From contig CP104013.1 in assembly GCA_025839675.1 (NCBI GenBank), forward strand, positions 1,290,001 to 1,322,000: 32,000 bases of DNA, written 5' to 3'. The number at the start of each line of letters is the position of its first letter. The first letter of the stretch is position 1. The translations under genes and the position numbers were made by a program. This DNA is from Candidatus Lokiarchaeum ossiferum (GTDB taxonomy: Archaea > Asgardarchaeota > Lokiarchaeia > Sigyniarchaeales > Promethearchaeaceae). The notes below the pieces were generated by a model. It saw only the letters and a list, made by a program, of their open reading frames with translations, was not told the origin of the DNA and searched no databases. Below, in pieces: positions 1 through 17,055 of this stretch.

Positions 1-739
1 TGATATTATTCAAATTTAAATAATCGCTTAGTATTTCCCGAATTCTCATTACATGAGATTTCCAGGCCCAATACGGAACTTGCATTATTTTATTTGAATC
101 ATGACTTATATCGAAGTATAAGCCATCATTTTGGGCGATTAAATCGCTTTCAAATAGTCGTAGTATTTTGTGGTAGATTGGTAGATATTCTTTTCTCTTT
201 GGAATTTGAATAGAAAAAGATTTTCGAATGATTGCTAATGATTTGTGAGCATCATCCATAACAATAGCACCAATTTCCATTATTTCCTTTCTGGGATTAT
301 TTTTTATGCCAAATAAGGACATTCCATTAAATAACTTATCAACAGATGTGATTAAAATTGATTTACTATTTATAAAATCCATTGGCAAAGGTTGTCCCTG
401 AACTGCTTTGACTACAGAAATACCAAAATCTTGAGCTTGATCAAAAATTTGATCCACCAAATATTTATTTGGACATAGAAATAAACCGGGTTTATTCAGT
501 TCATTCATTTTTGATTGAATAATTAATAAACCAACAAGTGTTTTACCATGACCAGTATGCAATTTTACAATAACATCATGATTTGACCGATTTTTTAAAT
601 TCCACTCTTTTAATATTTCTCTCTGAGAATCTCTAATATATTCTTTTCCTTGAAAAGTATCTAAATTATTAAAAATTTGAATTGGATCTAAAGTTTTCTC
701 AACTTTATTCTCTTTCAACATTTTTGTAAAATCAACCAT
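1..739 (-). CDS. SF2 (DEAD/DEAH-like) helicase, N-terminal part; the C-terminus lies beyond the window edge
   Basis: Hand translation of the minus strand from ATG (739..737) is open to position 1: MVDFTKMLKENKVEKTLDPIQIF...VIVKLHTGHGKTLVGLLIIQ...GLFLCPNKYLVDQ...IGAIVMDDAHKS. It shows Walker A/motif I (TGHGKT), a motif Ia-like LCPNKYLVDQ and motif II as the DEAH variant DDAH. It is absent from the ORF track, presumably because it runs off the edge. Confidence 0.8.
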   Translation of the reverse strand, partial: MVDFTKMLKENKVEKTLDPIQIFNNLDTFQGKEYIRDSQREILKEWNLKNRSNHDVIVKLHTGHGKTLVGLLIIQSKMNELNKPGLFLCPNKYLVDQIFDQAQDFGISVVKAVQGQPLPMDFINSKSILITSVDKLFNGMSLFGIKNNPRKEIMEIGAIVMDDAHKSLAIIRKSFSIQIPKRKEYLPIYHKILRLFESDLIAQNDGLYFDISHDSNKIMQVPYWAWKSHVMRIREILSDYLNLNNI

Positions 740-4835: not shown

Positions 4836-5258
4836 ATGAAAGTTTTTGCATATTACAGGATAAGCCCTAATCCGAGAAAAAATACTCCAGAGAATAATCA
4901 GATTAATGAGATTGAAAGTTATTCCTTACAAAAGAACATCGAAATTGTTAAGGAATATAAAGATTTACTTGTTTCTGGTAAAATTATTAATCAAAAGGGG
5001 TTTAATGAAATGCTAAGCAATTTATCAAAAGTAGATGGAAATATCATTTATGATGTATCTCGCTTTGGTAGAAATGCTAAAGAAGCGATTCCGTTATTTA
5101 TCAATATTCTTAGCATGAAGAAGGCTATTAAATTTGTCAAAGATAATAAAACTCTTGATTATTCAGATAGTTCAGATATGTCAATTTGGGAAATGTTAGT
5201 TCCAATAATTGAGCTATTTCAAGCAGAAGAATACATCAAAAATCTTCATATTATGTAA
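4836..5258 (+). CDS. Serine recombinase (resolvase/invertase family), catalytic domain only, apparently C-terminally truncated
   Basis: The protein shows KVFAYYRIS (catalytic Ser motif YxRxS) and IIYDVSRFGRN (the conserved D-x-SR-x-x-R motif). It ends within the E-helix region (ELFQAEEYIKNLHIM). At 140 aa it has no HTH DNA-binding domain. Confidence 0.7.
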   Translation: MKVFAYYRISPNPRKNTPENNQINEIESYSLQKNIEIVKEYKDLLVSGKIINQKGFNEMLSNLSKVDGNIIYDVSRFGRNAKEAIPLFINILSMKKAIKFVKDNKTLDYSDSSDMSIWEMLVPIIELFQAEEYIKNLHIM

Positions 5259-5305
5259 AATTGGCATCCCTTCCCTCCATCAAAATCACCATTGAATTAA
5301 ATAAA

Positions 5306-8300
5306 TTAAGCAATATCCCACATTTTCCTTGATATTTTAACATCTTCATCGACCGAATTCTTTAAATCTTTTAGCCAACTAATAATTTCTTTATTTGTTG
5401 CTTCTTGTATCCAATTTTCTATTTGGTTATATTCTCTAGAATATCCAGATTTAATATCCATACCAGAATATGAGCGGACAGTGGATAAAAAACTTCTAAA
5501 TATGTTATAGTTAAAATCAGTATTATCCTTGAATTTCAAAATTAATCTTTGATATACTGGATTAAATAATTGCTCAGATGATGATTTTTGCAATAACCTT
5601 CCTATTAGTTTCCCTAAAGATTTTGGATTAATTCTATATAATTTCACCAATTGTTCAAAATTAAATTTATTTAAAATATCTATATCTCCAGATATTTCAA
5701 ATTTTATTAGGACACTATGAAGTTTTGTATATTCTTCCAGCATTGATTCTTGAAACATCAGAGTTAATATATTATAGATTTCATCCTTAAATTCCCCCAT
5801 TGCTGATGTTAGAAATCCAGTAGATTCATACTCTGAAATTGAAAAACCCGTAATTAACCAAGGATTAAATAAATCAGGTTCTTTTTTCCCACATTCAATT
5901 AGAAAAGGAAAAGAATAGGTTTTTTTGAGAATATGTTCAGAAAATTTATGAAATTCCTTTAAAAAGGTTTGGGAAAAAAGATTATTTAATATATCTGGAT
6001 ATTTCTTGTATACTTCCTCAATTCTTATTAAATATATATTAAGGTCGTCATCTTCTGAGTACTTTCTCATTTTTGAAAAGTTAAATTCTTGAGAGCTTAG
6101 CTTCTTAATACTATTAACTAGAAAATTTCGAATTTCCCCTATTGGTATTTCAAAATTGAAATCTTTTATGACAATTAGAGTTAAACAAGGTTCTATATCA
6201 ATCTTTTGTGTATTAATCATTAGTTTAAATTTATTCCAAAGATTTAACGAAAAAATCTGAGGGATAAACAGAAATTTTTCCCTATAACTAACCAATTTTG
6301 GATTATCCCACAAATCTTCAAAAACTGAATCAAATATTTCCTTGTTTTTCACTTGAAGCGAGTATAAGAGACTTATTAGAAAATCTGAAGTATTTGCCAC
6401 ATTATCTACTTTTTCTATTAAATTGGTAAGAAATGAGATTTGTTGGACTAATTCATGTGGATCATATTTTTTTGCAAAAAACTCTCCGAATTCTCGGCTA
6501 CCCTTAAAATTTTCTTCTAATATTAATCTATAAATCTGATCCCTATTGATTTTTTCAAGCTCTAATAGTTTTGAATGGACATTTTCATATATTTTAAATA
6601 ATTCTGCCTTTCTAGTATCCCTGTCCCTATATTTATGAAATAAATCCATTGAATAAAGATCATAATCGAAATATTTCCTAAAATAATCTTCTGTGGAGAG
6701 ATTTTCTTCTAATTGCTCATCAAAAGTTAAAATTTCTTGAAGAGTGGTTTGATCATAACCATTTCTCCAAGAATCATATGCTTTTAAATTTCTAATGTGA
6801 TCCCTAAAAATATCTCTATATTTAGATTCATTACTGAATTCCCTACTTAGAAATTCAGATATTGAATGCCAAGGTATATATTTTGTCCAAAAAATTAAAT
6901 TACTGATTAAATATCTAAAAATTTCTTCTTTATAAGTCATATTACTAATCTCTTTATAAAACTGCATAAGATAGAAGAAATTCTTCTTTCGATAATCCTC
7001 TAAATTTTCAATTTCGGGATCGATTCTTGTATGATTAAATCTAATTGAAAAATTATCCATTCTTGAAAATGTATGCCATTGAAGTTCCATAAATGTTTTT
7101 AATGCAAGAATTTTCAATTTTATAAATGCATTTTGATATTTCTCAGGCCAACTTTGAGTATTCTTGAGATTTTTAATATAATTCCATCTTGTTTCTAACC
7201 TAACGTCTCCAATTAAACAGTGGCAATTCTCTGTAAATTGATCTAACCCAATTCTTGCTGAATATCCATAGGAATGTTCTTCATATTTTTTTATATTTAC
7301 CAGATATATCATGCTAAATTTTTTTAAGATTTCCATTGATTTCTCAAAAAAAATTTCATACTTTGCAACTTTTGATAAAAACCATAGAATAGGTTCTTCT
7401 GGACTTCTAGGTTCGTATATATTGCTTTGAAATGGAAAAAGTTCATTTAAATCATCTAATGATATTCTTTGGAACCAATCGTCAAGAATCTCCATTGATT
7501 CTCCTTTAAAGACGTATGATAATTGTGAAAAAATTTCACTTTTCGTTTTATCTCTCAAAATTAAGATGTTTTGAAAAGGGCCATTTTCATCATAAAATAG
7601 ATGACTGATTATTCCAGAATACGACTGATTTAACATACTCGTATTGCATATTTTTGACATAAACTCTTTTAAGTAAAAATCACTGGGTTGTTCATTCAAA
7701 TAATTAAAGATATTTGAAAAAAAATCATAATCTTCTTTGATTTCATTAATTGTATCAATTAAAATACTATTGGAACATATAGTGTAAAAATTTCCAAATT
7801 TACTTAAGATATTAGTTGTATTTTTAATTAGAATATCGAAATAATTTTGGATCTCTTCATCAGATAATGTCTTATTTATTAAATCTTTAACTATCGGTCC
7901 TATATTTTCAAATTTTTCATTTTCATTGAAATAAAATTTAGAAAACAATGAAAACAACATAATAATTTTTTTTAATTCTCCCGATTTGGTTGAAGGAAAA
8001 TATTGTTCTATGTATTTTAACCTAAATGGTGTAGTGAAACTAAGGAAACTTATAATTTCTTGAATAATCCTATTTAAAACGGAATCAATGTAATAATAGG
8101 ATTCTTCATCTTTTACTTCATATTCATAAAAAGTAATATCGACTAATTTTGTTATATTTTCTTCTTCTTTTTCATTTTTTTTTGATGATTTTAACGGAGG
8201 TTTTAATCCAATTACAATAATATCTAGCATCTTTATGAGTCCTAATAAGTAAGTTAACCAAGGATCCATTGCATCATCTAAAATTAGAACGATGTCTGAT

Positions 8301-8947
8301 TTTCGAAAAATTGTTCTTAAAAATATAGGTTTAATATTCATTCTACTATTGATTGAATAAAACTTGAATCCATTTTGTTTCGCAAAATGTCTTAAATACT
8401 TCTCAGTTTCTTGAAAATGTATTTTTTCTTGTTCTTTCTCCAAGGATTCTTGTTTTTCATCAATTTTTATGTTATTAATTACATATAATCGAGATTTTAA
8501 GGAATTTTCGTCATTCAAAAGTAAATTTAGAGCTAAAGTAGTCCTAATATGCTGTTTCTGAGTTAAACTTATATTTTCATCAATCTCTAACTCGCATCGA
8601 CCCTGATCAAAATCCAGTGGTCTATAATTTAGTGTGACATGTTCTATTTCCATTATTTTTTTTTTTGATATAAATGCTATCTTATATTGGGCATTATTTT
8701 TTCTCTCCAATATGGTATTTGGAGTATCAAATTTATCCCAATAAAATATCTCGATTCCATTTAGGAAGTTAAATGCTTCTGAGATAATAATTCGGTCGTC
8801 AAAGGCATTGATAAAATTATTGTGGATGGGATAGAATAAGATGTCATTTTCTTCAATCTTATCCTTCAGAAATGTTGATTTATTTTTATTTTCGTCTTGA
8901 AATTCTTTAATTAATTCGATTAAAATTTCTTTGTTCTTTTCATTCAT
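5306..8947 (-). CDS. Large (1213 aa) protein of unknown function, predicted mostly helical, translationally coupled to the upstream phosphoesterase
   Basis: This is a long uninterrupted ORF in 20-25% GC DNA. Its ATG (8947..8945) overlaps the stop of the upstream gene in ATGAATGA. I found no Walker A (GxxxxGK[ST]) and no other catalytic motif by eye. Confidence 0.85.
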   Translation of the reverse strand: MNEKNKEILIELIKEFQDENKNKSTFLKDKIEENDILFYPIHNNFINAFDDRIIISEAFNFLNGIEIFYWDKFDTPNTILERKNNAQYKIAFISKKKIMEIEHVTLNYRPLDFDQGRCELEIDENISLTQKQHIRTTLALNLLLNDENSLKSRLYVINNIKIDEKQESLEKEQEKIHFQETEKYLRHFAKQNGFKFYSINSRMNIKPIFLRTIFRKSDIVLILDDAMDPWLTYLLGLIKMLDIIVIGLKPPLKSSKKNEKEEENITKLVDITFYEYEVKDEESYYYIDSVLNRIIQEIISFLSFTTPFRLKYIEQYFPSTKSGELKKIIMLFSLFSKFYFNENEKFENIGPIVKDLINKTLSDEEIQNYFDILIKNTTNILSKFGNFYTICSNSILIDTINEIKEDYDFFSNIFNYLNEQPSDFYLKEFMSKICNTSMLNQSYSGIISHLFYDENGPFQNILILRDKTKSEIFSQLSYVFKGESMEILDDWFQRISLDDLNELFPFQSNIYEPRSPEEPILWFLSKVAKYEIFFEKSMEILKKFSMIYLVNIKKYEEHSYGYSARIGLDQFTENCHCLIGDVRLETRWNYIKNLKNTQSWPEKYQNAFIKLKILALKTFMELQWHTFSRMDNFSIRFNHTRIDPEIENLEDYRKKNFFYLMQFYKEISNMTYKEEIFRYLISNLIFWTKYIPWHSISEFLSREFSNESKYRDIFRDHIRNLKAYDSWRNGYDQTTLQEILTFDEQLEENLSTEDYFRKYFDYDLYSMDLFHKYRDRDTRKAELFKIYENVHSKLLELEKINRDQIYRLILEENFKGSREFGEFFAKKYDPHELVQQISFLTNLIEKVDNVANTSDFLISLLYSLQVKNKEIFDSVFEDLWDNPKLVSYREKFLFIPQIFSLNLWNKFKLMINTQKIDIEPCLTLIVIKDFNFEIPIGEIRNFLVNSIKKLSSQEFNFSKMRKYSEDDDLNIYLIRIEEVYKKYPDILNNLFSQTFLKEFHKFSEHILKKTYSFPFLIECGKKEPDLFNPWLITGFSISEYESTGFLTSAMGEFKDEIYNILTLMFQESMLEEYTKLHSVLIKFEISGDIDILNKFNFEQLVKLYRINPKSLGKLIGRLLQKSSSEQLFNPVYQRLILKFKDNTDFNYNIFRSFLSTVRSYSGMDIKSGYSREYNQIENWIQEATNKEIISWLKDLKNSVDEDVKISRKMWDIA

Positions 8948-9998
8948 TTATTCTTGCACCATCCTTCAAATTGTTTTTTAAAGTTGAAATATCCAATCCC
9001 ATAATTTCAATTCTTTTAATAATATCATCAGTAGGAACCGACCATCTTCTAAATTTATGATTATACACCCATTCTTCCTGATTATTATCCCAAGCTATTA
9101 AAGAATATTCTACTGATCTGCCTCGCATGAATTTCAACAAACAGCATTTATTTGGATAATTTTTTTTTGAAAATGTAGAACCAAGTTTGAGATGAAGAGT
9201 TTCAGAATCGGGATATATGATAATATTCTCATTGTCTCTGGTTTCATGTTCATGTCCAGTTATTAAAACATGAGTTTTTCTCCTAATTCTGTCAAAATCG
9301 TTGTCTTTCTTCCTATTATCAGCAAACCAGCGTTTCGGATGATGAAAAAGAGTAACAACAAATGGTAATTCTTCTCGGTCAATTCTATTTTTGTTTTGGA
9401 GAACTGAAAAAAATAAATCTCCTAGCCATAATTTTTTTTTATCTGTAGAAGAATTTTTACTAAACCAACAGGAATTTAAAGATATAAAATAGATCTGTCC
9501 AATTTTTCTAAAACCAAATAAGTAATTCTTATGATACTTCCCATGTTTGTCACCATATTCAAACTCTGGTATTTTTAAGTCTTTACTCATAAAAGAAATG
9601 TAATCTTCAAAACCTGAAAAATAATGATCTAGGTTTGTTTCTAACTCGTTTTCTACTTCATCTTTATCATCAATGTAGTCAATAATATGTGATTTACTTC
9701 GAAGTCGATCATGATTACCTGGTGTTATTAATAAATTCTCCATTGGAATAGATAATTCACTTAGAAATTTGTCAAGCCAATCTTTTTTAAAATGCAAATA
9801 ATCATCATTACTTCCATAATAAGCTATATCACCTACAATAACACAGATATCGGGTTTTGATTCATCTGGAAGAGTCTTAATTTGATCAATTAATTTATCT
9901 AAGCAAATCATCCTCTTGCTGAAATTTGCATCATTTGGGTCTTTTGACTTATAAGATGTAAAATGAATATCAGAAAGACACAGAACTACATTTTCCAT
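8940..9998 (-). CDS. Calcineurin-like metallophosphoesterase
   Basis: All five canonical motifs appear in order: LSDIHF (DxH), VGDIAYYG (GDxx), PGNHD (GNHD/E), LFHHP (H) and ITGHEHE (GHxH). Confidence 0.85.
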   Translation of the reverse strand: MENVVLCLSDIHFTSYKSKDPNDANFSKRMICLDKLIDQIKTLPDESKPDICVIVGDIAYYGSNDDYLHFKKDWLDKFLSELSIPMENLLITPGNHDRLRSKSHIIDYIDDKDEVENELETNLDHYFSGFEDYISFMSKDLKIPEFEYGDKHGKYHKNYLFGFRKIGQIYFISLNSCWFSKNSSTDKKKLWLGDLFFSVLQNKNRIDREELPFVVTLFHHPKRWFADNRKKDNDFDRIRRKTHVLITGHEHETRDNENIIIYPDSETLHLKLGSTFSKKNYPNKCCLLKFMRGRSVEYSLIAWDNNQEEWVYNHKFRRWSVPTDDIIKRIEIMGLDISTLKNNLKDGARINE

Positions 9999-10306
9999 TT
10001 TTTTATTTAATAATTTATTTTGACTATATATTAGCTTTCGTCTCGGTAAGAAAAAACATGGAATTCTATTTTTTTTATAATCAATTTTTGGGGAATATAG
10101 GAAAAAAGGAACAACTTTTCAACTGTCCCTTTTCTATTCTAATTTACAAACAAATCCTTATAACTATTGTTAAGTAAACTCACCAAAATTGTCAAAATAG
10201 AATAAGCAAAAAATAATGTTACAAGATAAAGCGCTGAGGCATTTTTCCAGTAAATTTCTTCAATAGGTTCTCTAAAGGGAGTGAATTTATCATTATTTTA
10301 ATTATA

Positions 10307-12283
10307 TTACTCTAAATATTGTTTTAACTTAGAAAATGAACCAAATACGGAAGGATACCTTTTAATTCTCTCTTTAAAATTCATCTCTACTTTTATATCA
10401 CATTTTTCAAAGTATAGTTCAGTATTCAGATCAATCCATTCATAAACAACTATGAAACATTCAATTTCATGATGTGGATATAATTTCTTCAAAGCTTTTT
10501 TCTTTTTGATTAGTTGTTTAATAATTTCTTCCTTACTATGCACAAAATATTTACACTCATAGCATGAAAGTACATTTTCATCTTTCAAAATATAAATATC
10601 AATTTCTTCGCCATAAATACTTTTTCCCCAAGATATTTCAAAATTGGGATATTTATTTGTATACCATTGATATACAACTGCCTCGAAAGCAAAACCCTTT
10701 CTTTTGTCTATATCCATTTCTAATTTTTTTAACTTATCTTTTTGAGAATGTATAATTGAATATTTGGTTTTTCCCTGAAGATATTTAAGCAAGATATCCA
10801 TTTTTAGATGAATAACATCAAGGGTTATAATCAAAAGGTTTGAATTAATGGTATCCATGATATTTTTATAAAGTGAAGGTCCAAATCCATGATAACCATA
10901 GGTAGCTACATTGAAGAAAAATAACCAACCTGAAAAATCAGAACCAATAGTTCCATAGCCTTCCATCAATACTGCAACTGAAATATCACCTGAAGTTCCA
11001 TCTTCGTGCTTAAAAATTTTTATTTGTAGCTTATTCTCAAAATTTTGATTCTTTCTTCTAAATATCTCACCTCTAATTAGCGATAAGCATGTGTAATAGC
11101 CATTGAATAATGTGTCATTTCCTTCCAATACATCCACTTTATACCAAAATAACTTCTGATCCAAAATATGAGATATTTGTTTTTCAGACATACCATCATT
11201 GATTTCTTCAATTTCATGTTTCTTTGAAAAAAAGGGCATAACAATCTCTTTTTTAATTGGACATTTCCATTTAACTAGTTCAATTAACGAAAGATAGGAA
11301 AGCTGAGATTCGTAATTTTGAATTAATTGCCTTATTCCTTTAAAAGTCCACGATATTAAGGACCAAATCATATTTACCATTATCTGCTTGCTTATTTTTT
11401 CGTTTGTAATTTGTTCGTCGTAAGGAGACAAGAACCTACTCCAAAATGAAAAATTAGATTCGAAATCTGTATCAGTAAACTTCTTGATCTGAGAAGTTAT
11501 AATTTTCAGCCCAGAGTTAATTGTTTTAATATTTTTTTTCTTATTTCTTTTGAAATCTTCTGGAATTCCCATTTCATGTTCTTTATACAAGTTTTCTATG
11601 GATTTTGAAATAAAAAAGTTAGATATTTCCCCATAATTTGATTTTAAGATTGAAACGGTGTTTATCAAATTGACTAAATTATTTTTCTTAATTAAATCGC
11701 TATATTCAATAATTTTAAATTTATCAATAAGAAATTTGATCGTAATAAGATAACCGGAGATTATTTTGAGAATAAAAATTCCGGTTAGTTTAGTTTGGTT
11801 AAACTTATTGAAAAAAATATTAGGTTCTTTGTGATCTACGGTTAAATAATCTAATAGTTCGTAAAATTCAATAATTTTTATTTTTTTACTAATATCTCCA
11901 TCTAATAGATATCCATTTTCAGATATATAAGCTAATAAAACATCAATAAACTTATTTATCAAAGTGATATGTTCTTTGATTTCATCAAATGATTTAGCTT
12001 TTCTTATTTTTCTTCCTAAATTAATTAATCCTTTAATAAATTGAATTCTCTCACAATTTTCGGGGATATCATTCAAATTTACTTTGTTAGAATAGAAACC
12101 TCTCAAGAAATTTTTATTATATTCTAAATCTAAGATTTCATCATTATCAATTTCCTTAATAACATTTGACCAAGAAAGATTCAAAATAAATTTATATCCA
12201 AAAAAAATTTCCTTCGTTTGGAAAATTTCAAGGTTATGAGTATAATAATTTATATAATTCAAAAACTCATCAACATAACACAT
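10307..12283 (-). CDS. 658-aa protein with a C-terminal PD-(D/E)xK (restriction-endonuclease-fold) nuclease-like domain; the N-terminal about 500 aa are unknown
   Basis: The C-terminal region reads KGFAFEAVVYQWY...GEEIDIYILKDENVLSCYECKYFV. This gives a helix Glu, then a D on a beta strand, then E-x-K, which is the classical PD-(D/E)xK arrangement. Confidence 0.6.
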   Translation of the reverse strand: MCYVDEFLNYINYYTHNLEIFQTKEIFFGYKFILNLSWSNVIKEIDNDEILDLEYNKNFLRGFYSNKVNLNDIPENCERIQFIKGLINLGRKIRKAKSFDEIKEHITLINKFIDVLLAYISENGYLLDGDISKKIKIIEFYELLDYLTVDHKEPNIFFNKFNQTKLTGIFILKIISGYLITIKFLIDKFKIIEYSDLIKKNNLVNLINTVSILKSNYGEISNFFISKSIENLYKEHEMGIPEDFKRNKKKNIKTINSGLKIITSQIKKFTDTDFESNFSFWSRFLSPYDEQITNEKISKQIMVNMIWSLISWTFKGIRQLIQNYESQLSYLSLIELVKWKCPIKKEIVMPFFSKKHEIEEINDGMSEKQISHILDQKLFWYKVDVLEGNDTLFNGYYTCLSLIRGEIFRRKNQNFENKLQIKIFKHEDGTSGDISVAVLMEGYGTIGSDFSGWLFFFNVATYGYHGFGPSLYKNIMDTINSNLLIITLDVIHLKMDILLKYLQGKTKYSIIHSQKDKLKKLEMDIDKRKGFAFEAVVYQWYTNKYPNFEISWGKSIYGEEIDIYILKDENVLSCYECKYFVHSKEEIIKQLIKKKKALKKLYPHHEIECFIVVYEWIDLNTELYFEKCDIKVEMNFKERIKRYPSVFGSFSKLKQYLE

Positions 12284-12770: not shown

Positions 12771-13463
12771 TTATTTTTTCGAATTAAATACCCATAATAG
12801 AAAATCTTCATCCCCGCGGGTCTTGCCCAAATAAAAACTAGGAATCTTATATTTCACAGAGATTTCCAGCAAACGAATGGTGAGTAATTTCGTCAAGGGA
12901 GTCAAATCGAGAATCACATTGGAATCTTTTTGCTCTGACTGGATGAGAGATTCCAAATTTTGAAAAATGGAACTATCATCATTACGATATTCTAAATAAG
13001 GATATTCATGGACGACATCAAAAGTCTCGAATTTTTTGGCGTCTTTAAGGTTGGATTTGGGGGTGACAAACGCTACGATCCGAGAAATGACATAGCCTTC
13101 TTTTTGGAGAAGGGCTTTAGATTTGAGGGGAATTTCATAGGAGGGGCCAAAAGTAGGGCTATCCAGACCAAATCCGGTGATAAGCGTATAATGATCCTTA
13201 GAGATCCCAAGGAGGGAACGAACCCGTTGTATAGCATTGGGATGAATCGCAATTTCATTCAAGGACACATTACCAACGGTTGCCAAAGTTTTTTTTGTGA
13301 TTAAATCCGCTTCTTCTAACTTATTTAAATTATAGAGAAGACCTGCCCCCGAAATGCCAATAGCCATAGCAAGATCTTTTTGCTGGTAAGGTTTTTTCTC
13401 CAAAAGAGCCAGAATATGGAGTTGCTTGTCATTTAAATGGTAGTTAAAAGTGCGGTTAAACAT
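12771..13463 (-). CDS. Transcriptional regulator: N-terminal wHTH fused to a C-terminal Csa3-like CARF domain
   Basis: The N-terminus is ArsR/MarR-like: LHILALLEKKPYQQKDLAMAIGISGAGLLYNLNKLEEADLI. The C-terminal half has alternating beta/alpha pattern with YTLITGFG after strand 1 (compare Csa3 FVTMGF). It also has VILDLTPLTK, which fits the CARF strand-4 signature [DN]x[ST]xxx[RK]. Confidence 0.5.
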   Translation of the reverse strand: MFNRTFNYHLNDKQLHILALLEKKPYQQKDLAMAIGISGAGLLYNLNKLEEADLITKKTLATVGNVSLNEIAIHPNAIQRVRSLLGISKDHYTLITGFGLDSPTFGPSYEIPLKSKALLQKEGYVISRIVAFVTPKSNLKDAKKFETFDVVHEYPYLEYRNDDSSIFQNLESLIQSEQKDSNVILDLTPLTKLLTIRLLEISVKYKIPSFYLGKTRGDEDFLLWVFNSKK

Positions 13464-13510
13464 TTGAATCTAATGATAATTGGTCACAGCAAGACTTTAA
13501 AGATTTCTTT

Positions 13511-13546
13511 AATCGCCGTTAAAAAAAAATTAAATAGCCGTTAAAA
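13511..13546. promoter_or_regulatory. Two 14-nt direct repeats, AAT[C/A]GCCGTTAAAA, spaced 22 nt start to start in the divergent intergenic region; candidate operator
   Basis: aatcgccgttaaaa is at 13511-13524 and aatagccgttaaaa at 13533-13546, with one mismatch. They lie between the wHTH-CARF gene (start 13463, minus) and the Smr gene (start 13647, plus). Confidence 0.4.
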
Positions 13547-13646
13547 TTATTCTTAAATACCATTAATGAGTTTATTTAATCGTGAAATTTGAGGAATTTA
13601 ACTTTGAATTCGATCAACTTATCACAAAAAATGGGAGGATGAGAAA

Positions 13647-13937
13647 ATGCAGATCGACTTACATGGATATAACTTGGCCGAAGCCATTGAAGACGTGTGC
13701 TGGAGGGCAACCGAAGCGGTACAAAGTGGAGATCATGTTTTGGAAATTGTGCATGGATTCCATCGTGGACAGGTCCTACAAACTCATTTCACTTCGTATG
13801 CCTTCAAGCAGGAAATGCAACGAATTGGAATCCAAATTCAGTATGACCCCGCGTCGTCCGACGAGGGGTTCTCAGTGTTTACAATGACCGCGCTAGCCCA
13901 TCACATACCACATCAAAAGACCTACATAGGGAGGTGA
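13647..13937 (+). CDS. Smr (small MutS-related) domain protein
   Basis: MQIDLHGYNLAEAIEDV...GDHVLEIVHGFHRGQVL matches the Smr pattern LDLHG...EA...hhIIHGxGxG. GGAGG at 13634-13638 lies 8 nt before the ATG. The overlapping ORF 13582..13887 in another frame has no recognisable features. Confidence 0.65.
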   Translation: MQIDLHGYNLAEAIEDVCWRATEAVQSGDHVLEIVHGFHRGQVLQTHFTSYAFKQEMQRIGIQIQYDPASSDEGFSVFTMTALAHHIPHQKTYIGR

Positions 13938-13947
13938 ACACACAGAC

Positions 13948-14082
13948 ATGGCAAAAAAAGCAATGGATAAAGCCGCCGCTCGACGGATCCAATCCGCTCA
14001 AGATAAGAAGGGAGCGAAGGGGGATGCACGATTCAAAAGTGTAGCCCAAAGTAAAGCGGCCAAAAATACCCAAAAGAAATAA
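13948..14082 (+). CDS. Small (44 aa) basic hydrophilic protein, MAKKAMDKAAARRIQSAQDKKGAKGDARFKSVAQSKAAKNTQKK
   Basis: It starts 11 nt after the Smr stop, with GGAGG at 13930-13934, and is followed by a strong hairpin plus T-run. From memory it weakly resembles the IQSA...AQSAA repeats of SMP-type hydrophilins. It falls below the ORF-track size cutoff. Confidence 0.4.
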   Translation: MAKKAMDKAAARRIQSAQDKKGAKGDARFKSVAQSKAAKNTQKK

Positions 14083-16287: not shown

Positions 16288-16450
16288 ATTATTTGGGATT
16301 ATGAAAACATCCGGGTGGTCGTGAAGGGGATTGAAGTACCTTTAGCGGAGTCCCTAGATGCCTATACAGCAAAAATCGGATTCTTGCGGATTAAAAAAAT
16401 CAACTCCGATTGGACCAATGTCAATAAAACAATCCTTAAAGCCATGTATA
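16288..16450 (+). repeat. Right copy of the 163-nt diverged direct repeat
   Basis: See 14206-14368. The copy begins abruptly at the AT-rich/GC-richer boundary. Confidence 0.85.
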
Positions 16451-17055
16451 GTCTCGGATTTGAACCAATTCAAGTATCCATGGGCAAAACTAATAGCGTG
16501 GATGTCAAAATTGCAGTGGATTGTCTGGACACCGCGCAATTAATCCCCAGCATTAGCACGTATATTATTGTCACGGGAGATAAGGATTTCATCCCGGTCA
16601 TTAATTGGCTAAAATCCCACAAAAAACGTGTGATTATCATTGGAAAGGCGGATTTGGTGAGCGATCATCTCCTCCTAAGTGCGAATGATTTTATTTCCCT
16701 CGAAGAACTCTCGAAACTGGAAAAACAACAGAAATCCTCGAAAGAAAATGGAAAGCAAAAGTTAACCATTTCATTTACGGAAGCAGTGAAATGTTTGGTT
16801 CAGAGTATTCACCAATTGCATTCCAAGGGCAAACCAAGTCGTTTTTTAACCTTAGATAAGTACATGCGAAGTTTGGATCAATTCAATTATCGGGGGGCCG
16901 CTTCGATAGAAAAACCCAATGGAAAGGGAAATTTTACATCCTTTACCAATTTGGTGAAAATGGCGGAAAGTCAAGGCAAAGTGAAATCCATTACGGTAAA
17001 TGGGTTCCGAGAAATTCGAGTCAATCCATCCAAAAAAGAGAAGAAAAAAGCATAG
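16315..17055 (+). CDS. NYN (LabA/limkain-b1-type PIN-like) domain protein with a C-terminal OST-HTH/LOTUS-like domain; no proper 5' end
   Basis: TYIIVTGDKDFIPVINWLKSHKKRVIIIGK is the typical NYN C-terminal motif. The C-terminal about 90 aa (FTEAVKCLVQSI...FTSFTNLVKMAESQGKVKS) resemble OST-HTH. Homology including IIWDYENIRVV extends upstream to 16288, but no ATG, GTG or TTG exists in frame before the GTG at 16315. Translation from that GTG would lack the first catalytic Asp. Confidence 0.7.
   Translation: MVVKGIEVPLAESLDAYTAKIGFLRIKKINSDWTNVNKTILKAMYSLGFEPIQVSMGKTNSVDVKIAVDCLDTAQLIPSISTYIIVTGDKDFIPVINWLKSHKKRVIIIGKADLVSDHLLLSANDFISLEELSKLEKQQKSSKENGKQKLTISFTEAVKCLVQSIHQLHSKGKPSRFLTLDKYMRSLDQFNYRGAASIEKPNGKGNFTSFTNLVKMAESQGKVKSITVNGFREIRVNPSKKEKKKA

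Follow-up and report, generated by a model that had tools for sequence, protein, structure and literature searches.

A metallophosphoesterase gene overlapping that of a large alpha-solenoid protein in Candidatus Lokiarchaeum ossiferum: a possible immune sensor-effector pair

In the 32,000-nucleotide (nt) stretch of Candidatus Lokiarchaeum ossiferum DNA analysed here (the window; all coordinates are positions in it), a metallophosphoesterase (MPE) gene overlaps the gene of a protein of 1213 amino acids (aa), and the two lie in a cassette that behaves as one block when compared with a related metagenome contig. The MPE belongs to a clade that supplies effectors to several conflict systems. The large protein belongs to a rare family, the full-length members of which carry a TIR-like enzyme head on an alpha-solenoid; in L. 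ossiferum this head seems to have decayed. We suggest, with a probability of roughly 0.4, that the cassette is an accessory two-gene unit that arose from a single-gene family built as an enzyme head plus an alpha-solenoid with no NTPase, and plausibly an immune sensor-effector pair. The preliminary description of the locus had proposed a conflict or defence module. The affiliation of the MPE with a defence-effector clade agrees with that proposal, whereas the pairing is not conserved, and neither an NTPase nor an adaptor domain accompanies it.

Both genes are on the minus strand, with the MPE open reading frame (ORF) at 8940..9998 (352 aa) and the large-protein ORF at 5306..8947 (1213 aa), so that the coordinates, strand and overlap first reported are confirmed. 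The overlap, ATGAATGA, covers 8 nt (8940..8947, minus strand) and was read directly from the sequence: the MPE ends in ...AGA ATA AAT GAA TGA and the large protein starts with ATG AAT GAA AAG, codons 2-3 of the large ORF containing the MPE stop codon. A partial Shine-Dalgarno-like GGTG lies 9 nt upstream of the large-protein ATG. The overlap suggests that the two proteins are translationally coupled. Identical contigs are present in Logan assemblies.

The MPE is a complete calcineurin-type phosphoesterase with five metal-binding motifs, as had been claimed from its translation. It passes the cutoff of Pfam Metallophos (PF00149; E=6e-13, 50.1 bits versus 21.5), and this above-gathering score, together with the motifs DxH, GD, GNH[DE], H and GHxH, all five of which are present, places it in the Calcineurin-like superfamily. 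The metal ligands D10, H12, G56-D57, G94-N95-H96, H219-H220 and G248-H249-x-H251 are invariant in an alignment that includes four relatives (alignment A6), and D97 (in G94-N95-H96-D97) and the Glu of G248-H249-E-H251 are conserved there as well. The catalytic domain (~aa 5-310) is followed by a helical tail of ~40 aa (aa 311-352) with no recognised adaptor domain.

Every informative match of the MPE is, as far as profile and sequence comparison goes, to an effector domain of conflict systems. The NCBIfam model DS8_antiphage (NF053861) aligns aa 8-310 with profile positions 2-288 of 994 (3.3e-26), at 91.3 bits versus a cutoff of 790 bits, which falls short of the full-length equivalog. The PADLOC candidate PDC-S60, probably the same system as DS-8, matches over profile positions 3-247 of 1027 (3.4e-20), and NCBIfam DS9_1 matches at 6.6e-12. 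The nearest full-length relatives found have 26-30% identity (P0003, P0004 and an Agrobacterium plasmid protein). P0003 and P0004 bear a C-terminal GAAD adaptor (PF19976), and such MPE-GAAD relatives head GASH/DO-GTPase/GAP1-N1 operons in metagenomes and on the Agrobacterium plasmid. A fused DS-8-like protein of 1033 aa is encoded on a Bacillus thuringiensis plasmid (1e-63). Searches of PDB sequences and a metagenome scan with the MPE gave no match.

DS-8 is a single MPE-NACHT protein in which both the metallophosphatase catalytic residues and the NACHT ATPase are needed for anti-phage defence (PMC13092281), and the commonest effector of GAP1-N1 systems is a calcineurin-type phosphoesterase (Kaur, Burroughs, Iyer and Aravind 2020, PMC7159879). 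Given the matches to DS-8, PDC-S60 and MPE-GAAD proteins, we therefore regard this clade, which serves as effector in DS-8, in PDC-S60 and in GAAD/GTPase-centric conflict operons, as a repeatedly exchanged effector module. The L. ossiferum protein is found without NACHT, GAAD and the usual partners: PF19976 was not detected in it (Pfam, E<=1), and its tail has no similarity to the tails of P0003 and P0004.

The large protein is hit by none of the family models in Pfam, PADLOC and NCBIfam, even with the threshold relaxed to E<=1. An exhaustive HMMER search of 1.84 billion representative proteins returned nine matches, three of them full-length (1079-1103 aa, 29-30% identity), and one more family locus, in a Promethearchaeota metagenome-assembled genome, emerged when 185,579 species genomes were scanned for a pattern. 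The sole taxonomically labelled relative is from a Promethearchaeota (Asgard) genome, and the family has so far been labelled only in Asgard archaea. Word-indexed protein searches, with the single sequence or with an alignment, recovered self-matches only; the family alignment found no match in metagenome and viral contigs, and the family profile none among PDB sequences. The family is very small, extremely rare and patchy.

Its conserved core, which aligns to all relatives, is a HEAT/ARM-like all-alpha solenoid body, corresponding in L. ossiferum to ~aa 310-1213 (5309..8020, minus strand). An AlphaFold2 (AF2) model made with the relatives included is almost wholly helical over aa 400-1200, with values of the predicted local distance difference test (pLDDT) mostly at 70-93, and bears out the initial view of the large partner as a helical protein. 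We presume that the solenoid is the sensor or scaffold of the large protein. Foldseek searches of viral structures returned nothing informative. The large protein is a member of an undescribed family, the overall plan of which is already known from DSR2-type proteins.

In the relatives, a conserved alpha/beta domain (~190 aa) stands at the very N terminus and displays the motifs AFIVYSS...HVPY...SDxGIVILDGLRPNVAYExGL...IIPLK. The heads of all four relatives match PF10137, the TIR domain of CAP12/Pycsar effectors (best E 6.8e-6), at scores mostly under the gathering threshold (those shown are below the 24.7-bit cutoff). An AF2 model of the head (pLDDT 59, predicted template-modelling score 0.60) retrieves with Foldseek almost only TIR domains from the PDB (TIR-STING, TcpB, RPPT-TIR, RRS1, TLR10, BtTir, AbTir, Roq1), followed by nucleoside 2-deoxyribosyltransferase and DNPH1 (E-values 1e-3 to 1e-2). 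A search of PDB sequences with the TIR-like profile gave no match. On the PF10137 matches and the TIR-dominated structural matches, we therefore call the relatives' N-terminal domain TIR-like with moderate confidence; its fit to the CAP12/PycTIR type is consistent but marginal. As a separate point on these sequences, the database call of P0005 is short at its N terminus; the ORF extends 19 codons upstream (L006 9944-10000) and then includes the first conserved TIR-like strand, AFIIYSS.

Searched with a profile of the relatives' head, the L. ossiferum protein gives a match over aa 205-249 only (E 2e-7, single-sequence search), a remnant of ~45 residues, SDIVLILDDAMDPWLTYLLGL..., encoded at 8201..8335 on the minus strand. 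The relatives' invariant N72 and E76 correspond in the alignment columns to W230 and L234 of this remnant. Of the acidic residues in the helix that follows strand C of the relatives' head, E76 alone is invariant and, judging from topology, would sit at the catalytic-Glu position of TIR and NDT-fold enzymes. The L. ossiferum large protein itself matches neither PF10137 nor any other Pfam family, and the conserved Glu is missing from it. By alignment, then, the TIR-like head appears decayed in L. ossiferum and intact in the four full-length relatives. The protein has no Walker A of any form. The preliminary description had recognised no catalytic or NTPase motif in it; this holds for the P-loop, whereas the remnant of a TIR-like domain is recognisable.

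Ahead of the remnant lies a region of ~200 aa (8348..8947, minus strand) that has no counterpart in the aligned relatives. Its coding status is genuine: 200 stop-free codons have a probability of ~3e-9 at this composition, and the other two frames across the region contain 19 and 25 stops. It shows no similarity to DS-8-like or GTPase-system proteins, and we consider it a candidate for docking or regulating the MPE.

The limits of the cassette come from L014, an ENA metagenome contig with a Logan twin, L015. These contigs share with the window only two abutting segments (93-95% nucleotide identity). L014 530-603 aligns with window 10107-10036, just upstream of the MPE (93% identity), and L014 601-1230 aligns with window 5886-5257 (95% identity), which comprises the last 191 codons of the large gene and 49 nt beyond it. 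They meet at a GAAA(A)G microhomology, and the fusion (519-1230) makes a 220-aa chimeric ORF, P0007. Since the two segments abut, L014 has lost ~4.15 kb (about 5887-10035 in the window), a loss that covers a TATA-like element, the entire MPE and approximately the first 1020 codons of the large gene. Homology extends from 110 nt upstream of the MPE to 49 nt past the large gene. The limit at 10107 falls on a T-run that follows a small hairpin, and 200 nt separate it from the gene of a 658-aa protein (10307-12283, minus strand); the limit at 5257/5258 is the stop codon of a resolvase fragment. The flanks of L014 are unrelated to the window on both sides, with a GC content of 0.39 versus 0.28 in the remnant, and no direct repeats of at least 8 nt were found at the cassette edges.

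From this comparison it follows that 5257..10107 (minus strand; promoter, MPE, large gene and 49-nt tail) behaves as a single inherited or transferred block, that the 658-aa gene, a CARF gene farther upstream and the resolvase lie outside it, and, given the internal deletion in L014, that the cassette is dispensable. The upstream block that travels with it (9999..10107, minus strand) contains the TATA-like TAATATATA at 10025-10033, ~31 nt before the MPE ATG and preceded by a purine-rich CGAAAGC, and probably acts as the promoter. A three-gene system that included the upstream 658-aa protein was also considered, and was rejected on the position of the block end. Apart from these segments, L014 has a 767-bp region (1459-2217) in common with L003 (10521-11285), a contig of the same metagenome that carries a relative of the large protein, at 75% nucleotide identity. 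The region lies within 2.2 kb downstream of the large-family gene, contains an ORF of 133-186 aa starting MSLSELCSR..., and may mark a hotspot or represent a gene family that is repeated or mobile.

Genomic context is available for four full-length relatives (L003/L004, L005, L006/L007 and L008). Three of these loci are flanked by several kb on both sides; L008, limited to 279 nt upstream and about 20 nt downstream, says little on neighbours. The preliminary description had made its proposal depend on finding homologues of the two genes together in other genomes. There is no MPE in the sequenced flanks of the four relatives, with L008 nearly flankless, and all-against-all BLASTP detected no conserved neighbour among the four loci. 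The pair is therefore not a conserved two-gene system, and in L. ossiferum it looks like a local effector replacement.

One of these loci does contain genes of defence type. At L003 317-3479, a CD-NTase-like cyclase (PADLOC Cyclase, 3e-23) and an OLD/AriA/PtuA-like ATPase (1e-27) are encoded 1.5-4.7 kb upstream of P0006, a relative with an intact TIR-like head and solenoid. A minimal nucleotidyltransferase lies directly upstream of P0006, and a NERD-like protein is also encoded at L003. At the locus of another relative, a weak DndC-like PAPS reductase is found with a ParB_N protein nearby. These neighbours at L003 and at the second locus therefore hint at a tendency of the family toward variable, partly defence-rich regions, anecdotal at four loci. 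We also observed that proteins of ~650 aa adjoining the large-family gene have a C-terminal PD-(D/E)xK/NERD-like motif (G..FE...DID...ECK) both in the window (10307-12283, minus strand) and at L003 (8418-10376, plus strand); the 658-aa protein of the window and the 652-aa NERD-like protein of L003 have no detectable sequence similarity.

As judged from sequence, the two-gene architecture has no counterpart in PADLOC, NCBIfam or the conflict-system literature consulted, and appears in one lineage only. It can nevertheless be set against several known systems. DS-8 has an MPE domain of the same clade with the same catalytic motifs, likewise at the head of a large protein or operon. However, DS-8 is one polypeptide with an essential NACHT ATPase, whereas the L. 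ossiferum MPE is a separate 352-aa protein, and its partner has no P-loop and no similarity to the C-terminal 700 aa of DS-8. Neither protein of the pair contains a NACHT/STAND NTPase (no Walker A; no NACHT or AAA match). A split DS-8 was thus rejected, the large protein being unlike the NACHT/C-terminal part of the B. thuringiensis DS-8-like protein and devoid of a P-loop.

In GAP1-N1 systems, the MPE-GAAD effectors are small separate genes at the 5' end of the operon that overlap the next gene, much as here. These effectors carry GAAD and are followed by GASH, two DO-GTPases and GAP1, in contrast to the L. ossiferum window, where none of these occurs; a GTPase-centric system was rejected on this ground (no GAAD, GASH, DO-GTPase or GAP1 in a Pfam search of the window ORFs). 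Nor does the large protein resemble the GASH, GTPase or GAP1 proteins of Agrobacterium in sequence.

The large-protein family comes closest in plan to DSR2, which combines an N-terminal SIR2 NADase with an alpha-solenoid C-terminal domain that binds the phage tail tube protein (PMC11850899, PMC11263360). Both lack an NTPase and combine an NAD-cleaving-type head (~150-200 aa) with a much longer alpha-solenoid (~900 aa). They differ in that the head of the family is TIR-like and not SIR2, with no sequence similarity, and in that the head of the L. ossiferum protein is degenerate, with an MPE added in trans. No SIR2 match was found in the search for DSR2 membership, and DSR2 chains are absent from the 50 best Foldseek matches of the large protein. 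With CAP12/PycTIR effectors, the relatives share the PF10137 match of the head and the resemblance of its model to TIR-STING, TcpB, AbTir and plant TIR domains. Unlike in those effectors, the head is fused to a solenoid and not to a SAVED, cNMP-binding or STING sensor.

We infer that the two L. ossiferum proteins interact physically and act together in defence, with a trigger and a substrate as outlined here. In the relatives, a CAP12/PycTIR-type head would sit directly on a ~900-aa alpha-solenoid and, by analogy with DSR2 and with TIR effectors, binding of a cue from an invader to the solenoid would activate the N-terminal enzyme. The L. ossiferum protein has a decayed TIR-like head and a new N-terminal region of ~200 aa, and an MPE of the effector clade is encoded immediately upstream. 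The MPE and the large protein would be made together, and the MPE would be held or regulated by the N-terminal part of its partner. Once the solenoid recognised its trigger, the phosphodiesterase activity of the MPE would be released on a nucleotide or nucleic-acid substrate and the infected cell would be arrested. The logic of a small effector with a large sensor, proposed from the outset, remains a reasonable reading, given that the best matches of the MPE are all conflict-system effectors. Indirect support for a role in defence may be seen in the homology to effectors, in the family's patchy occurrence and in the presence of defence genes close to one relative.

A further-reaching version of this proposal seems doubtful to us, and we put it forward tentatively: the large protein would represent an undescribed NTPase-free family of immune receptors with a TIR-like head and a HEAT-like solenoid, and L. 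ossiferum would show an effector replacement in progress, in which the TIR-like enzyme in cis would have been lost, a new N-terminal docking region would have arisen and a free-standing MPE of DS-8 type would be recruited in trans by translational coupling. This family is known so far only from Lokiarchaeum-like sequences and one Promethearchaeota genome.

Several observations weigh against an immune sensor-effector pair. The pairing is seen in one lineage, with no MPE beside the four full-length relatives. The large protein and its relatives are not recognised by PADLOC models, and the main text of a PADLOC-based survey of L. ossiferum omits this locus among the defence systems it names (10.64898/2026.02.13.705702). 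Neither the MPE tail nor the N terminus of its partner was found to carry GAAD or another adaptor domain, and the N-terminal 300 aa of the large protein, in which contact with the MPE is proposed, are modelled by AF2 at pLDDT <50. The TIR-like scores are marginal or sub-threshold (PF10137 at best 6.8e-6; Foldseek E ~1e-3 with a model of pLDDT 59). Finally, known defence genes are sparse in the window.

Among the alternatives, the one that survives best is an accessory operon unrelated to defence, in which a solenoid scaffold and an MPE phosphatase or phosphodiesterase would act in strain-specific signalling or metabolism, loosely like the HEAT scaffold of PP2A with its calcineurin-fold subunit. 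The best PDB matches of the solenoid in Foldseek are scaffolds and transport receptors (CRM1, exportin-4, CAND1, SF3B1 and transportin-3; E 3e-6 to 1e-4), the source record annotates the MPE as CpdA, a cAMP phosphodiesterase, and the large protein is hit by no recognised defence model. The template-modelling scores of these fold matches are, however, only 0.12-0.21, and therefore reflect a generic alpha-solenoid resemblance and give no evidence of kinship. Moreover, the specific matches of the MPE are to conflict-system effectors, not to PPP phosphatases or CpdA models, the relatives bear a TIR-like head and make up a rare family, and a related contig shows a deletion of the cassette. Taken with these points, we find an operon of this kind unlikely.

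We consider it improbable that the locus is in decay, the large gene being a disabled TIR-solenoid relic and the MPE an unrelated neighbour that overlaps it by chance, with no joint function. Such a history would fit a TIR-like domain worn down to ~45 recognisable residues with its conserved Glu gone, a pairing confined to one lineage, and the loss in L014 of the MPE and most of the large gene. Yet the ORF has stayed open for 1213 codons at 26% GC, where stops are expected approximately every 11 codons. Over the 191 codons that can be compared with L014, the ratio of nonsynonymous to synonymous substitution rates (dN/dS) is 0.23 (11 synonymous and 11 non-synonymous differences), which indicates past purifying selection on the large protein. 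The MPE has kept all its catalytic residues, and the region upstream of the MPE belongs to a single homology block with the end of the large gene.

Less probable again is that the MPE degrades a signal instead of killing: as a cyclic or oligonucleotide phosphodiesterase it would tune nucleotide signalling, with the TIR-like remnant as a ligand-binding element and possible cross-talk with a neighbouring wHTH-CARF protein or with Pycsar systems located elsewhere in the genome. The MPE of DS-8 has been described as a homologue of the cGAMP-cleaving phosphodiesterase SMPDL3A (PMC13092281), and Kaur et al. predict nucleotide substrates for this phosphoesterase clade (PMC7159879). A wHTH-CARF_m5 gene shares the strand of the MPE and lies 2.8 kb upstream of it, and two Pycsar systems and the absence of a CRISPR array have been reported for strain B35 (10.64898/2026.02.13.705702). 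Against this, the CARF gene and the 658-aa gene are outside the shared cassette block, no cyclase was found in the window scans, and any ligand binding is putative. A nuclease-ATPase repair complex of the SbcCD or Mre11-Rad50 type, suggested by the size pairing of an MPE-fold protein encoded beside a much larger one and by a weak SbcD_rel_arch match of the MPE (E=0.0064), is very improbable and was rejected, in line with the initial judgement: this match reaches 16 bits versus a cutoff of 115, below the SbcD-family thresholds, and the large protein has no ABC ATPase head, Walker A, Walker B, signature motif, SMC or AAA domain, coiled coil or zinc hook, its model being a solenoid and not a long antiparallel coiled coil.

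The surroundings of the cassette had been described as a defence island, with a tRNA, a recombinase remnant, a homing-endonuclease-like gene, a PD-(D/E)xK protein, an SF2 helicase and an RNase-rich CARF region. This picture stands in part. No tRNA or other Rfam family was detected in the window (ARAGORN; Rfam at gathering score and at E<=0.1), the LAGLIDADG match is sub-threshold (E=2.8e-4), and the 658-aa protein resembles PD-(D/E)xK proteins at the motif level only. What stands is an SF2 helicase at the edge, a resolvase fragment, one CARF protein and one NYN nuclease. The helicase is represented by its N terminus (motifs GHGKT and DDAH), cut off by the window start (1..739, minus strand). 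It aligns with residues 1-236 of PDB 10uj_A, an 845-aa chain entitled 'Helicase ATP-binding domain-containing protein' (E=5e-51). The serine-recombinase (resolvase) catalytic fragment (4836..5258, plus strand; 140 aa, assigned by Pfam) lacks the DNA-binding domain. Its stop codon lies within 1-2 nt of the right-hand end of the cassette homology, which suggests that the window-specific flank starts with the resolvase gene.

Upstream of the cassette, the wHTH-CARF_m5 protein (12771..13463, minus strand; PADLOC CARF_m5, 2e-15) is an orphan CARF regulator, and the genome that encodes it reportedly lacks CRISPR arrays; for strain B35, six PADLOC systems and no CRISPR array have been reported (preprint 10.64898/2026.02.13.705702). 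The NYN nuclease is encoded at 16315..17055. Two further observations concern the composition of the window. Between the helicase and the LAGLIDADG-like gene, ~1.5 kb (740-2275) contain no ORF of at least 90 aa on either strand and no Rfam match, and could be degraded or non-coding sequence. At 13001-14000, the local GC content peaks at 0.41, versus 0.26-0.29 in the adjacent 12 kb; the sign of the GC skew switches at ~13 kb, and no RNA gene was detected there.

The MPE is, on its matches, a new member of a known effector clade. Were the immune reading wrong, the locus would be a strain-specific operon of unassigned role. If it is right, L. ossiferum would provide an archaeal example of the metallophosphoesterase effector class, which has only recently been shown to be anti-phage (DS-8, DS-9). 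It would also offer a natural effector swap, from a fused domain to a separate gene, that could be used to test how sensors are coupled to effectors. A virus-host system has become available for a sister strain of L. ossiferum, which is itself in culture, so that the prediction is testable in principle. For the family, the finding would mean a new NTPase-free combination of a TIR-like domain and a solenoid in the archaeal lineage closest to eukaryotes, and would bear on how TIR-based immunity and helical-repeat sensors came together before the origin of eukaryotes.

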